Notes: a model not told the origin generated them from the sequence alone. 64,000 bases of DNA from Mycobacterium phage prophiFSAT01-1 (BK061308.1); one strand, 5' to 3'. Shown: positions 8,614 through 15,914, counted from the first letter of the stretch. Numbers and translations: made by a program.

Positions 8614-8837
8614 GCGCCAAGACTATCCGTGCGCGTGAGATCGTCAATGAGGTCCGCAACGACGCCGCGAATGATGTCAAGAACTTCGACGGCCGTGAGC
8701 TGACTGGGCGACTGGTCGGCGAAATCAATGGCAACACAAACGGTCTCATCGTGGGTCTGGCCAATTGTATTGAGATGTTGGCGACCGAGATCGAGCGGCT
8801 TGAGAATCGGATGCCACCTCAACAGGGGTGGTGGTGA
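8607..8837 (+). CDS. hypothetical protein
   Basis: Overlapping, coupled ORF. Confidence 0.35.
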   Translation: MVSAKTIRAREIVNEVRNDAANDVKNFDGRELTGRLVGEINGNTNGLIVGLANCIEMLATEIERLENRMPPQQGWW

Positions 8838-9544
8838 TGTTCACCTACTCCACCTGCGTTACGTGCAACACGATCATGATCGTTACAGACCATGACCAGC
8901 GTCAGCACCCGGAGTGCGCAGAGAACGCGCCAGCGCCAACGCTGACGCGCGTGGAGCTGCTGACCGAGGAGTTACGCGCCGCACTCATTGCTGGCGACCA
9001 GTCTGTGTTCGATTCCAAGTTGGCTGAGCTGAATGTGATAGATGATCAGCCGCCACCGCTGGGCCCTTCGGCGCTGTTTTATGCCACAGAATATGGCTGG
9101 CCCGTGTTTCCGTTGGAGGTTGGGGGTAAGCGACCAGCTGTCCCGAAGAAGGATGGTGGCAACGGGTTCAAGGACGCGACGACCGATCCAGAGCGCATCA
9201 AGAAGTTCTGGACCAAGCACCCACTTTGCAACATCGGCATACCGACCGGCATCCATTTCGACGTGATCGATGTGGATGTGCCTGATGGATGGCTGTCGCT
9301 GCGCGACATGCTGAATGAGGATCGAGTGCCCGACATTCATGGTCGCGTGGCGACCTCATCTGGTGGTGTTCACCTTCTGATCGAACCCACCGGCGATGGC
9401 AACTCGGCCCGTATCGCGCCAGGTATCGACTACCGCGGCACGGGCGGTTATGTCGTGGCGCCACCCTCACGAATAGACCCCCAGCACCGCTGGTCGTGGA
9501 CGGTCAAGCCGTCACCGAAAGTAAAAGGGAGAGAGAAACAATGA
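8828..9544 (+). CDS. bifunctional DNA primase/polymerase (PrimPol) domain protein
   Basis: Prim-Pol N-terminal signature FYATEYGWPVFPL...GGKRPAV...GFKDATTDPERIKKFW...NIGIPTGIHFDVIDVD. Confidence 0.65.
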   Translation: MVVMFTYSTCVTCNTIMIVTDHDQRQHPECAENAPAPTLTRVELLTEELRAALIAGDQSVFDSKLAELNVIDDQPPPLGPSALFYATEYGWPVFPLEVGGKRPAVPKKDGGNGFKDATTDPERIKKFWTKHPLCNIGIPTGIHFDVIDVDVPDGWLSLRDMLNEDRVPDIHGRVATSSGGVHLLIEPTGDGNSARIAPGIDYRGTGGYVVAPPSRIDPQHRWSWTVKPSPKVKGREKQ

Positions 9545-9852
9545 ATGAATCAACTAACACCCATGAAGACCCCATCGTCAAGCATGTGGACTCCGAAGTC
9601 CTGCTAGACATCTGGCTCGATGGATTCTCCAGCGGCATGGCGACTTTGATCCTAAACGCATCCGAGGGGCACGACGACGCGCCACCTGAGATGGTGCAGG
9701 ACGCCATGGTCCAGAGAATCGTCAGCGAAATCACGAGCGACCCGGCGGCGATGGAGACAGCGCGTCAGAAGATCTTTGCGCGCGTGCTCGGCACTCCGCA
9801 GTTCGGGACCACCAAGCTCGACCTCGCGCGGGTGGATTCTTCCGATGAATGA
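9541..9852 (+). CDS. hypothetical protein
   Basis: ATGA coupling and an acidic protein. Confidence 0.4.
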   Translation: MNESTNTHEDPIVKHVDSEVLLDIWLDGFSSGMATLILNASEGHDDAPPEMVQDAMVQRIVSEITSDPAAMETARQKIFARVLGTPQFGTTKLDLARVDSSDE

Positions 9853-10321
9853 GCTGAATATGGCGATTCGCGAGGCGATCGCGGAGGCGAGCGACGACGC
9901 TACGCCGCAGCGTATCGCGGCGGGACTGGCCGAGCAGATGACCGAAAATGAGGCCAGAACGCACCTGGTGATGTTGATGACTGACGTTGTGCGCGCGCTC
10001 ATTCGCGAACGGCGCAACACGGCTCTGGCCAAAGCGATGAGCGAGCTACGCGGCGACAAAGCGAATCAGTCACCGAAACTGGCCGCGCGCCGTGAGTGGT
10101 GGCAGGAGATGCTTGAGTCACGCGTACACGTCGGCGCGAACGACTGGAAACGACTTGGCGACTGCACCGCAGGGGATCTGGAGTTCTGCATCGCCGAGCG
10201 AGAGATTCAGATCAATCGCACGCATCAGCAGATCGACAACTACCGGCATCTGATCAAGTTGATGGACGAGCACCACGCCGAGACGGTCGATCAGTTGCCA
10301 CGAGAGGCGCTGGCGGCCTGA
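9845..10321 (+). CDS. hypothetical protein
   Basis: Start overlaps the upstream stop. Helical protein. Confidence 0.4.
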   Translation: MNELNMAIREAIAEASDDATPQRIAAGLAEQMTENEARTHLVMLMTDVVRALIRERRNTALAKAMSELRGDKANQSPKLAARREWWQEMLESRVHVGANDWKRLGDCTAGDLEFCIAEREIQINRTHQQIDNYRHLIKLMDEHHAETVDQLPREALAA

Positions 10322-10541
10322 TGATTACAGACTTCCACCCGGACCAAGTTTTGAGCGCTAACCATATTTGCGTCGTTCGGGTGGAACCAAACTACCGAGT
10401 GCGACCAGTCTCGCGGTGTGACCCATGTGGCCGCCGTCGTACTCGGTTTCAAACTTCCACCTCGGCCCATATGTGGAGCGCTATCCAATCAGCATTCGCT
10501 CCGAGGTGGAACTCCATCACAACAACACAACGGAAGGATGA
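10322..10541. repeat. structured non-coding region: two related ~55-nt hairpin units
   Basis: Two stem-loops with arms TTCCACCCGG/CCGGGTGGAA and TTCCACCTCGG/CCGAGGTGGAA. Each loop contains GAGCGCTA and CATAT(T/G)TG. The region is 220 bp between replication-associated genes. Confidence 0.45.
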
Positions 10542-11279
10542 ATGATGGGAGCGATACTGCGTGACCCGTTGATGGGTCTCCATGCGGATGTGCTGAACGA
10601 TCTCGAATCAGTCAGGATCGCCAACGAGAATCGTCTGCGCACACTCACCGACACCGGCGAAGATGGCCACGGTCTGACGCTGGACAACGCCGAAGTGGCC
10701 CGCCTGGCGGCGTTGGTGGACGCGCTGAAAGATGCTGAGAAACAGGCGACATCGAACCTACAGAGGTCGATGCGCATACACCCACTGGGCAACTGGGCCA
10801 AGCAGATGACCGGCGTGGGTGAGAAGCAACTGGCGCGACTGCTGGCGGCTATCGGTGATCCGTACTGGAACGACCTGCACGATCGTCCACGGCTGGTCTC
10901 GGAGCTGTGGTCGTACGCTGGCTACGGAGTGATCGACGGAGCGGCACCGCGGCGGCAGCGAGGTGTCAAGAGCAACTGGTCCGATGACGCACGCATGCGC
11001 GCCCGACTCATCGCAGAGAAGTGCGTGATGCAGAAGCCGACTGCGCACTATCGCCAGGTCTACGACCGAGCGCGTGAGAAGTACGCGGATGCAACGCATG
11101 CCGTGACATGCAATCGCTGTGGTCCGAAGGGTAACCCAGCGGTCGCGGGGTCACCCCTGTCGGCGGGGCATCAACACGCGCGTGCGTTGCGCGTGGTGTC
11201 CAAGGAGCTGTTGCGCGATCTGTGGATCGAGTCGCGAAGGATTCATCAAGAGCGTGCGGAGGTTCTGATTGCGGCCTAG
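10542..11279 (+). CDS. protein resembling the C-terminal (Transposase_20/HhH) domain of IS110-family transposases, with no DEDD catalytic domain
   Basis: Segment MTGVGEKQLARLLAAIGDP...LWSYAGYGV...RQRGVKSNWSDDARMRARL matches the IS110 C-terminal domain pattern from memory. The N-terminus is a coiled coil only. Confidence 0.4.
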   Translation: MMGAILRDPLMGLHADVLNDLESVRIANENRLRTLTDTGEDGHGLTLDNAEVARLAALVDALKDAEKQATSNLQRSMRIHPLGNWAKQMTGVGEKQLARLLAAIGDPYWNDLHDRPRLVSELWSYAGYGVIDGAAPRRQRGVKSNWSDDARMRARLIAEKCVMQKPTAHYRQVYDRAREKYADATHAVTCNRCGPKGNPAVAGSPLSAGHQHARALRVVSKELLRDLWIESRRIHQERAEVLIAA

Positions 11280-11459
11280 AGATCAACTACCAGGCAACTA
11301 ATCATCAATCACAACAACGAAATTGGAGAATGCGATGAAGCGCTGGATATACAAATTCCTGGGCGTCCAAGTACCGGGGTACGACGAGACGCCCGCCTAC
11401 ACGGCGACGGTCAAGCGTCTCGGATTCGACCCGGAGACCCTGGCCTGGGTGGTGTCGGC

Positions 11460-14270: not shown

Positions 14271-15914
14271 GTGACGGCGATGAGTGACGAAAACAATGAC
14301 GAGACGGTAACGGAACCGCCCGAAGACAATGGCGGCCAAGTCATCTCATTCAAAGAACGCATGCGCGGATTCCGCGGAAGCGACGCCGAACCGCCACCGG
14401 CACCGCGGCGCGCGACGCCTGTCGAATTCATCGGTGACGATCGCTACGGCCGCGCGGCGATGGAAAAGGAGCTGGCGATCTTGGCCGCGACACCCGAGGG
14501 TGCGCGCAACCAGCAGCTCAACACGTCCTCATTCAGCCTCGCGGGTCTGGTGCGCGCCGGGAGGATCGACGAACAGACGGCCATCAACAACCTGGTGAGC
14601 ACAGCGCGGGCTATCGGCCTAGCTGAGAGCGAGATCATGCCGACGATCCGGTCGGCGTTCCGCGGCAGTGACGCCAAAGTCGGCGCGCGGCAGGTGCCCG
14701 AGCGCGAGGAGATACCGGCCGCGTTCACGATCGACCCGAATGACCCGAGTGACACGGCTGACCCTGCTGATGCGTCGGATGTCGCGGCGGCCGAGATCAG
14801 CGACGACGAGGCAGAGCGACTACTGGCGCACCGTAGACGCGTCCAGCAGTCCGCATACGACCTCCGCGTGTCAGACGAAGGCCGAGCGCTCTACGCGGCC
14901 CAGCAGGCGCATGAGCTAGGCCAAACCGCGCCAGATCCGGTGTCGCTGACCGACTTCTTGAGCATTCCCGACGAGGACGCTGTCTATCGCATCGGTGAGC
15001 TACTGCCGGTCGGTGGCCGCGCGCTACTGGCGGCCCAGTACAAGGCCGGCAAGACGACGATGATGGCCAACCTGCTGCGCTCGCTGGCCGATGGTGTGTC
15101 ATTCCTCGGGAAGTTCACGACGACTCAGGTTGAGCGGGTCACGGTGATCGATACCGAGCTAGATGAGCGCATGTTTCGCAGATGGTTACGCGCGCAGGGC
15201 ATTCAGAACACCGAACGTGTGCAGGTGCTCCCGATGAAGGGTCATCTTGCGACGTTCAACATCATCGACCCGAGCACCCGTGCATCCTGGGCGGCCAAGC
15301 TACATGGGTCGGATTTCATCATTCTGGACTGCCTACGGCCCTGTCTGGACGCCCTCGGGCTCTCCGAGGACAAGGACGCCGGTAAGTACCTGGTCGCCTG
15401 GGATGCGTTCGTGGCCGAGACTGGGGCCGACGAGTCGATCGTGGTCCATCACATGGGCCACAGCGCCGAGCGCAGCCGCGGCGATTCCCGGCTGCTCGAT
15501 TGGCCGGATGTGCTCTGGAAAATCGTGCGGGAGCAGGCCGAGGAGGGGGAGGACCCGGCAGCCGATGGGGGTAAGCGGTTCTTCTCGGCGCACGGTCGAG
15601 ACGTGGCAGTGGCCGAAGGTTTGCTGGAGTACCTGCCGGAGACTGGCGGGTTGCTACTGCATGAGGGTGGCCGAGCGGCAACGAAAGCGCGCGACGGGCT
15701 GCCGCTGGTGGTGCAGATTCTCTCTGATCCCGAGTTCATCGGCGGCCTTGGCATGCGAGCGCTGACCGCCAAACTGGGCGAGAGCGGTGTCGGTTTCCAT
15801 GCCGCGCGCAAGATCATCAAGACCGCAATCGAGGAGTCCGTCATTCTCGTCGGTGAGGGTGCCCGTAACGCCAAGGTCATGACATTAAACCCATCTGCGG
15901 CGAGGTGGTCATGA
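14271..15914 (+). CDS. DNA primase/helicase (PriCT-like N-terminal domain plus RepA/DnaB-like P-loop ATPase)
   Basis: N-terminal AAMEKELAILAATPEGARNQQLNTSSFSLAGLVRAG (PriCT-like) and Walker A AAQYKAGKTTMMANLL. Confidence 0.65.
   Translation: MTAMSDENNDETVTEPPEDNGGQVISFKERMRGFRGSDAEPPPAPRRATPVEFIGDDRYGRAAMEKELAILAATPEGARNQQLNTSSFSLAGLVRAGRIDEQTAINNLVSTARAIGLAESEIMPTIRSAFRGSDAKVGARQVPEREEIPAAFTIDPNDPSDTADPADASDVAAAEISDDEAERLLAHRRRVQQSAYDLRVSDEGRALYAAQQAHELGQTAPDPVSLTDFLSIPDEDAVYRIGELLPVGGRALLAAQYKAGKTTMMANLLRSLADGVSFLGKFTTTQVERVTVIDTELDERMFRRWLRAQGIQNTERVQVLPMKGHLATFNIIDPSTRASWAAKLHGSDFIILDCLRPCLDALGLSEDKDAGKYLVAWDAFVAETGADESIVVHHMGHSAERSRGDSRLLDWPDVLWKIVREQAEEGEDPAADGGKRFFSAHGRDVAVAEGLLEYLPETGGLLLHEGGRAATKARDGLPLVVQILSDPEFIGGLGMRALTAKLGESGVGFHAARKIIKTAIEESVILVGEGARNAKVMTLNPSAARWS

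Follow-up and report, generated by a model that had tools for sequence, protein, structure and literature searches.

The early region of the Mycobacterium abscessus prophage prophiFSAT01-1 raises the question of what lies in the 220 bp (10322-10541) between the stop codon of a 181-aa reading frame (9776-10321, + strand) and the start of a 245-aa reading frame (10542-11279, + strand). A sequence-only reading of this region had described a non-coding stretch between replication-associated genes, carrying two cognate long hairpins and acting perhaps as an sRNA, an origin element or a paired protein-binding site. Positions given here refer to the window, that is, the whole stretch of DNA analysed, which covers the final 64,000 of the prophage's 67,729 bp; the prophage, a member of cluster MabR, occupies attB-18 in M. 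abscessus strain 280 (assembly FSAT01) (PMC9434293). The region is interpreted, with a probability of about 0.9, as a three-unit stem-loop TIGR array serving the adjacent tasA gene within the early lytic operon of the prophage, where TIGR (tandem interspaced guide RNA) denotes an RNA-guided DNA-binding system first described in 2025 (Faure et al. 2025, PMC12045711).

Genomic context

The array and its putative effector gene correspond to annotated genes 26 and 27 of prophiFSAT01-1 and form part of the rightward early lytic gene block, which upstream of the array contains a methyltransferase, exonucleases and Prim-Pol. Placement between replication-associated genes is only loosely accurate: the Prim-Pol gene lies about 800 bp away on the upstream side, but the immediate neighbour on the other is tasA, whose partnership with the hairpins the sequence-only reading had missed. 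The relevant features are:

8828-9544, Prim-Pol gene, ~800 bp upstream of the array
10321-10545, + strand, 74-aa ORF annotated as prophiFSAT01-1 gene 26 (DAZ89915.1)
10533-10539, + strand, ribosome-binding site GGAAGGA for tasA, read from the sequence, within the 30-nt linker after the last unit
10542-11279, + strand, tasA, 245 aa, coiled coil and Nop-like RNA-binding domain (NF052498 and fold matches)
14271-15914, helicase/primase-like ORF

McProf, the founding member of cluster MabR, has only 131 bp in common with the 1.7-kb stretch 9700-11400, and with so little shared around the array, the TIGR-tasA module has the look of a mosaic insert within the prophage's early region. The common segment (McProf BK061309, 13434-13564; window 9700-9830) is 93.9% identical. 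A nucleotide similarity search of 10322-10541 against GenBank phages gave no DNA match, and Rfam covariance models run at relaxed thresholds gave no match within the same interval at E <= 10; the conservation of the array region is, as far as sequence comparison goes, structural only. No promoter-like or terminator-like sites were found flanking the array, so that the array is most simply assumed to be transcribed as part of the operon. Elsewhere in the window, the hairpin model picks up, on either strand at E ~0.1, a perfect GC-rich palindromic hairpin with a 13-bp stem and a 9-nt loop (53462-53500). This hairpin is unrelated to the array and probably serves as a bidirectional terminator close to where the lysis/late region ends.

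Architecture of the hairpin units

Three tandem hairpins are present on the + strand with a period of 61 nt (10333-10386, 10394-10447 and 10455-10511), separated by linkers of 7 nt, and the array ends 30 nt before the start of tasA on the same strand. All three have the frame 11-bp stem, CCA, N9, YG, N4, CCA, N9, CG, stem, which is parsed functionally as box C, spacer A, box D, loop, box C, spacer B and box D, with a box D-loop-box C segment of 9 nt between the two spacers. The units match the definition of stem-loop tigRNAs (PMC12045711 section 9; bioRxiv 10.64898/2026.09.09.750476). Furthermore, the published TaTasR tigRNA1, which reads AG CCA UGCAAGCCC UG AAAC CCA UUGCCUUAG UG CG, has the same frame (CCA-N9-UG-AAAC-CCA-N9-UG). 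Their predicted components are:

10330-10389, + strand, tigRNA unit 1 (covariance model 45 bits, E 4e-7; fold -22.6 kcal/mol, z -3.2)
10333-10343 and 10376-10386, left (TTCCACCCGGA) and right (TTCGGGTGGAA) stem arms of unit 1, with one G.U pair
10332-10334, CUU; 10344-10346, box C (CCA); 10347-10355, spacer A (AGTTTTGAG); 10356-10357, box D (CG), first half of unit 1
10358-10361, loop CTAA; 10362-10364, CCA; 10365-10373, spacer B (TATTTGCGT); 10374-10375, box D' (CG), second half of unit 1
10391-10450, + strand, tigRNA unit 2 (covariance model 34 bits, E 8e-5)
10394-10404 and 10437-10447, left (ACCGAGTGCGA) and right (TCGTACTCGGT) stem arms of unit 2, with a G10401.U10440 wobble
10405-10407, CCA; 10408-10416, spacer A (GTCTCGCGG); 10417-10418, box D (TG), first half of unit 2
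10419-10422, loop TGAC; 10423-10425, CCA; 10426-10434, spacer B (TGTGGCCGC); 10435-10436, box D' (CG), second half of unit 2
10452-10514, + strand, tigRNA unit 3 (covariance model 28.7 bits, E 1e-3; fold z -3.9)
10455-10465 and 10501-10511, left (TTCCACCTCGG) and right (CCGAGGTGGAA) stem arms of unit 3, a perfect 11-bp inverted repeat
10454-10456, CUU; 10466, extra C; 10467-10469, CCA; 10470-10478, spacer A (TATGTGGAG); 10479-10480, box D (CG), first half of unit 3
10481-10484, loop CTAT; 10485-10487, CCA; 10488-10496, spacer B (ATCAGCATT); 10497-10498, box D' (CG); 10499-10500, extra CT, second half of unit 3

A repeat search recovers the same arms, as 12-nt segments 92% complementary and 30 nt apart in units 1 (10333-10344/10375-10386) and 2 (10394-10405/10436-10447), and as 11-nt segments 100% complementary and 35 nt apart in unit 3 (10455-10465/10501-10511). 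The two hairpins of the sequence-only reading are thus real, but they are the first and third of three; the further palindrome that it had placed between them (CCGAGT, 10395-10400; ACTCGG, 10441-10446) is present as well, not as a separate feature but as a full unit of its own. The arms that it gave for the last hairpin are as listed above for unit 3, and the left arm TTCCACCCGG of the first is found at 10333-10342, whereas the opposing arm had been given as CCGGGTGGAA in place of TTCGGGTGGAA, the tenth pair being a G.U wobble and not G-C. The loops also need correction, from 36 to 34 nt in the first hairpin (TTCCACCCGG ends at 10342 and TCGGGTGGAA starts at 10377) and from 34 to 35 nt in the last. 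The motifs GAGCGCTA and CATAT(T/G)TG do occur in both outer loops, as had been noticed, and are explained by the unit frame: the former consists of the end of spacer A, box D (CG) and the loop CTA, the latter of box C (CCA) and the start of a spacer.

Every box C and every box D (six of each) is intact, as are all stems (10-11 pairs). Box D is CG in five of the six places, compared with UG in TasR systems, and C occupies that position in 92% of the units of the clade. The CUU at the stem base, reported as the processing site of stem-loop tigRNAs, is found in units 1 and 3, with CUA instead in unit 2, and relatives show only a moderate signal there. Where stem and core meet, unit 3 contains three additional nucleotides. 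While the arms of unit 2 are unrelated to those of the other two, units 1 and 3 are nearly identical in stem and loop, with 5 of 9 positions kept in spacer A and 1 of 9 in spacer B. This near-identity suggests that they are duplicates whose spacers have diverged, unit 3 probably being a copy related to unit 1 in which the spacers were replaced.

The sequence-only reading had also proposed that the region be folded as RNA, and the structure is stronger than expected by chance: the + strand of 10322-10541 folds with z = -4.2, none of 200 shuffles being as stable, versus z = -1.2 for the - strand, and single units fold with z = -2.8 to -3.9. In a covariance model search of both strands of the 64-kb window, the three significant matches all fall within the region, and the next-best match has E = 0.1. 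The model was built mainly from the units of other phages, its 102 training sequences including units 1 and 2 but not unit 3. Units 1 and 2 have one G.U pair each, in place of which the opposite strand would carry a C.A mismatch. In the minimum-energy fold of the region (-81.7 kcal/mol), unit 1 pairs with unit 3 to form one long stem rather than three local hairpins. This long stem is regarded as a by-product of the near-identical arms because covariation in relatives backs the local hairpins, and the precursor may have competing folds.

The adjacent gene encodes a nuclease-free Tas effector

The 245-aa protein, for which NCBI places the start at the second ATG (10545), giving 244 aa (DAZ89916.1/WP_079869611.1), matches the NCBIfam equivalog NF052498 (TIGR_Tas_endo, 'TIGR-Tas system RNA-guided endonuclease') over residues 13-232 of 245 with 226.5 bits (E 3.5e-67; cutoff 100 bits). 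Further sequence matches are to the solved TaTasR chain 9MTY (E 4e-16) and to TasH chains. An AlphaFold model derived from 26 homologues has a mean pLDDT of 94.4, and its best 12 PDB matches in Foldseek are TasR/TasH chains (TM 0.62-0.72) together with one IS621 recombinase chain, with more IS621 chains next; Nop5 shows weak structural similarity to the model (Foldseek E > 1). The model consists of two long helices and a C-terminal domain only, and a Pfam search of the protein returned no match, including none to a nuclease domain. The presence of only a coiled coil and a Nop-like domain, without an HNH or RuvC nuclease, points to the TasA subtype (nomenclature of Faure et al. 2025, PMC12045711), and, as judged from sequence and model, the protein is TasA, a nuclease-free Tas effector. 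The reading frame is intact and lies behind a strong ribosome-binding site, and the residues invariant in the 26 homologues are all kept.

A further feature of the protein is an H-x3-C-x2-C ... H-x-H motif (H186, C190, C193, H210 and H212; window 11097-11177), which is invariant in all 26 aligned homologues. The segment around it is missing from the TaTasR alignment and may represent a zinc-binding insertion peculiar to the actinophage TasA clade. The homologues are labelled 'transposase' in RefSeq (NC_009878 gp71, NC_004688 gp21, NC_047891 gp059 and others) and in PHROG 4285, and GenBank labels read 'DNA binding protein' or 'hypothetical'. No catalytic transposase domain is found in these homologues, and the RefSeq 'transposase' label for phage TasA homologues is not supported.

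Related arrays follow tas and covary on its strand

TasA homologues occur in 90 GenBank phage records, of which 82 are Mycobacterium phages and the remainder Gordonia, Rhodococcus, Arthrobacter and Microcystis phages; the Mycobacterium phages among the matches listed belong mostly to cluster A1, for example Bethlehem. In IMG/VR, an alignment query retrieved 68 related loci and a query with the single TasA protein none. The unannotated 335-bp gap upstream of Bethlehem gp71 contains five hairpins of the same design with different stems. Across 73 related phage loci, the strict unit pattern is found 327 times on the tas strand versus twice on the opposite strand. The units lie for the most part immediately upstream of tas; downstream copies are frequent too, and many loci have units inside the gene. 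Relatives carry up to 12 units, and the tas-associated units persist whatever the neighbouring genes, standing next to structural genes in phage Omega.

Two tests that avoid circular selection were applied, in which units were chosen either by the core motif only or by the stem only (10/10 pairs, 32-nt loop). Among matches to the core motif, 288 of 371 form 9 or 10 of the 10 stem pairs, while 18 of the 20 core-motif matches on the opposite strand have only 1-6 stem pairs. Conversely, hairpins chosen by their stems yield the loop consensus cCA-N9-CGa..cCCA-N9-Cg. Within 102 core-selected units, 84% of cells are paired, compared with 56.5% in shuffles, both-side changes occur at 12 of 13 stem pairs, and the covariation score is 0.623 versus 0.160 in shuffles (reached by none of 500) and 0.10-0.21 when partners are slid. 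The sequence-only reading had named covariation in related phages as a check on the hairpins, and these values show that the pairing of the arms is kept, whereas spacer positions carry 0.00-0.15 bits in related units. In addition, the stems of relatives contain more G.U pairs (145) than A.C mismatches (83), an excess that points to an array RNA read from the tas (+) strand.

Many relatives contain one to three units within the tas frame, ~400-520 nt into the gene; with the tas start at 2501 of each locus, examples are L004 (2902-2933), L020 and L071 (2986-3017), L019 (2923-3014) and L041 (2875-3023). Intragenic units have been described in BlTasA (Xu et al. 2026, bioRxiv 10.64898/2026.09.09.750476), and the covariance model finds none within the tasA of the window. 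In Gordonia phage BENtherdunthat, the 'transposase' CDS gp059 (L071 2078-3352, 425 aa) begins ~420 nt before the TasA homology and crosses six units. Many of the database homologues of 350-425 aa probably have the same array-encoded N-terminal extension, be it real or an artefact of annotation.

Weighing of alternative explanations

Of the three roles offered by the sequence-only reading, that of an RNA is retained, in the more specific form of three guide RNAs for the adjacent TasA, and the two DNA-level roles are not. As a replication origin or single-strand initiation element, the hairpins would form in ssDNA and recruit Prim-Pol or a helicase; the Prim-Pol gene at 8828-9544 and the helicase/primase-like ORF at 14271-15914 lend themselves to this idea, and long-loop hairpins can form in DNA too. 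However, the element follows tas in 73 loci, across unrelated phage genomes and positions and irrespective of neighbours, including the structural genes of phage Omega. It does so strand-specifically (327 versus 2), with G.U pairs that count as mismatched in DNA and when the opposite strand is read, and with a loop that has the box C/box D frame of a known guide RNA, and neither iterons nor an AT-rich unwinding region are present at the array. An origin is, on this evidence, extremely unlikely. The same judgement applies to paired double-stranded operators for a dimeric regulator, bound at inverted repeats 30 bp apart, an arrangement suggested by the length of the repeats (11-12 bp) and by the near-identity of the arms of units 1 and 3. 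The unrelated arms of unit 2 do not fit it. Moreover, in relatives the arms change freely with complementarity kept, as the both-side changes at 12 of 13 stem pairs illustrate, which a sequence-specific site would not tolerate, and what stays fixed is a set of short motifs in the loop, confined to a single strand, which is the opposite of duplex operators.

That the region encodes the annotated 74-aa protein (prophiFSAT01-1 gp26), with the hairpins being incidental, is very improbable, despite the exact fit of the frame, which overlaps the upstream stop in TGATG (10319-10323) and the tasA start in ATGA (10542-10545), and despite relatives such as BENtherdunthat, whose 425-aa gp059 is annotated with the tas frame running through the array. 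The ORF is a singleton cluster among 15 billion proteins, its sole record being the third-party annotation of the prophage, it has no Pfam or PHROG match, and it is absent from the annotation of GCA_900131665.1. GC content hardly differs between its three codon positions (0.52/0.55/0.53, compared with 0.62-0.68/0.46/0.68-0.76 in the neighbouring genes), and, since the 61-nt period is not a multiple of three, the three homologous units would be read in three different frames. The ORF exists, but it is most likely spurious rather than a gene, as the sequence-only reading had supposed. A decayed or orphan TIGR-derived array that no longer guides, or a guide-independent role of TasA, is likewise unlikely, if less severely so. 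An array of only three units, the junction insertions of unit 3, the lack of CUU in unit 2 and the failure of every search to find a target would be in keeping with decay; against this stand the intact boxes (6/6 box C, 6/6 box D) and stems, together with an intact tasA that has a strong ribosome-binding site and keeps the residues invariant in 26 homologues. In fact, absent targets say little here because the natural targets of TIGR systems are generally unknown (PMC12045711; bioRxiv 10.64898/2026.09.09.750476). A functional-looking stem-loop TIGR array with its TasA effector is the reading followed below.

Apparent spacer turnover and predicted targets

In 11 cluster A1 loci, identity is 95.5% in the upstream gene and 96.5% in tas but 74% in the array. 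Between homologous units of these loci (L005-L015, locus 2140-2500), stems are 98-100% identical and spacers 36-42%. In one such unit, spacer A (TATCTCCGG) is common to three phages that have three different versions of spacer B. Variable spacers in otherwise near-identical loci suggest that spacers are exchanged rapidly, the two halves of a unit seemingly changing independently of each other.

The published tigRNA1, taken together with its substrate (TGCAAGCCC/CTAAGGCAA), bears out the target geometry 5'-[A][rc(B)]-3', with which the reported 8-nt 3' overhangs agree. This geometry gives the following predicted 18-bp targets:

Unit 1, AGTTTTGAGACGCAAATA
Unit 2, GTCTCGCGGGCGGCCACA
Unit 3, TATGTGGAGAATGCTGAT

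The three guides have no site at <=3 mismatches in the 64-kb window, nor in the left end of the prophage (integrase, repressor, cro) and 5 kb of host flank. In IMG/VR, exact scans with the three guides returned 1, 7 and 2 matches, none in an actinophage-like context; those of units 1 and 3 lie on contigs with 35-50% GC, and the two of unit 2 (78% GC target) on contigs with 63% and 75% GC. These matches are judged to be at chance level. Among GTDB species representatives, the guide of unit 1, which alone was searched, has 24 matches, none of them in Mycobacteriaceae. A 54-nt query of concatenated targets against GenBank phages returned no on-target 18-mer and only junction-spanning matches, and a 54-nt query with three Bethlehem guides returned one junction-spanning match only; two 126-nt queries comprising 14 cluster A1 guides returned none, an 18-nt match probably being above the E-value limit there. 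Guides from three complete phage genomes have no match in their own genome, and in the complete genomes of Bethlehem and BENtherdunthat no self-site with <3 mismatches exists in the published geometry, sites with 3 mismatches being no more frequent than in control geometries. It is conceivable, although we consider it rather doubtful, that the spacers of actinophage TIGR-TasA are turned over half-unit by half-unit and direct TasA against non-self DNA, i.e. rival phages or host loci.

Comparison with known RNA-guided systems

The array and tasA represent a new case, unannotated or mis-annotated, of a known TIGR-Tas type. The closest counterparts are the stem-loop TIGR systems with TasA, namely PlTasA (Peromyscus leucopus gut contig), BlTasA (Bifidobacterium longum) and MbTasA (Minisyncoccota) (PMC12045711; bioRxiv 10.64898/2026.09.09.750476; Guan et al. 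2026, bioRxiv 10.64898/2026.08.11.744272). Shared with these are a nuclease-free effector of coiled coil and Nop-like domain, variable but palindromic tandem stems, two 9-nt spacers framed by box C and box D and set apart by a 9-nt segment, CUU at the stem base (in two of the three units), an array directly upstream of tas on the same strand, and carriage by a phage. Differences also exist: there are three units compared with 13 in PlTasA, box D is CG rather than UG, an intragenic unit, as found in BlTasA and many relatives, is absent, and the protein is compact (245 aa) and contains the clade-specific H-x3-C-x2-C...H-x-H insertion. Unlike for most described TIGR loci, the host (M. abscessus) is known and culturable.

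The box C/spacer/box D frame, the 9-nt spacers and the Nop/coiled-coil fold are also common to the dual-repeat TIGR systems with TasR or TasH (TaTasR, PDB 9MTY; SpTasH). In contrast to these, conserved edge and loop repeats are lacking in the present array, a variable 11-bp stem taking the place of the edge repeat, the mature RNA would be ~55-60 nt long as opposed to 36 nt, and no cleavage is expected of a protein that has neither RuvC nor HNH. Archaeal and eukaryotic box C/D RNAs with Nop5 or Nop56/58 resemble the system in their coiled-coil-dimerised Nop protein and in a pseudo-symmetric two-guide RNA with C and D boxes, but K-turn C/D boxes (RUGAUGA/CUGA) and an L7Ae or fibrillarin partner are absent here, and the predicted target is DNA rather than RNA.

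The RNA-binding domain is homologous to that of IS110/IS621, IS621 being the next-best structural match, and bridge RNAs are likewise structured guide RNAs whose split guide segments read both DNA strands. Unlike IS110/IS621, the locus has no DEDD/RuvC-like catalytic domain and no insertion-sequence ends, and it comprises an array of equivalent units where the bridge RNA is a single molecule with a target loop and a donor loop. An IS110 bridge-RNA reading, to which an HhH-like protein motif had given a lead, was rejected on account of the missing DEDD domain (no match of the 245-aa protein to PF01548 or PF02371 at E <= 0.1) and the array of equivalent units, and a single bridge RNA at the end of an element was rejected given three equivalent tandem units at a locus inside a phage operon. 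CRISPR arrays offer a parallel in their tandem units with hypervariable guides beside an effector gene and in spacers that differ between near-identical phages. The locus, however, has no long identical direct repeat (25-36 nt in CRISPR), no cas genes or known adaptation machinery, and two 9-nt spacers per unit that are read on opposite DNA strands. A CRISPR array was discarded as a candidate, the direct repeats being short and 71-89% alike and the regularity residing in structure and 2-3-nt motifs.

Proposed mechanism and implications

By homology to the characterised systems, the following course of expression, processing, DNA binding and biological role may be envisaged. The + strand would be transcribed together with the surrounding rightward genes, and the transcript would be cut near the stem bases, at the CUU motif, into stem-loop tigRNAs of ~55-60 nt, one of which would be bound by a TasA dimer through the two box pairs, each made up of a CCA (box C) and a YG (box D). 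An 18-bp site, 5'-[spacer A][reverse complement of spacer B]-3', would then be recognised by base pairing, with one 9-nt spacer annealing to each of the two DNA strands. Lacking a nuclease domain, TasA would be expected to bind and bend the DNA rather than to cleave it, with transcription or replication being blocked as a result.

For the public record of the prophage, the analysis identifies correctable errors, in that the array is labelled as a hypothetical 74-aa protein and the effector as 'hypothetical'; the 'transposase' label that RefSeq gives to the cluster A1 homologues is likewise correctable. The targets, role and spacer acquisition of TIGR-Tas systems are open questions mainly because most loci lie on metagenomic contigs. 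The present locus belongs to a clinical M. abscessus prophage with a complete host genome and has close relatives in dozens of cultured M. smegmatis phages, and its host, like those of the cluster A1 phages, is a known organism that can be cultured and manipulated genetically. The spacer contrast within cluster A1 provides a concrete system for testing fast spacer replacement. If spacers are indeed turned over and directed against non-self DNA, these phages would provide the first natural setting in which the targets and the spacer acquisition of TIGR systems can be worked out.
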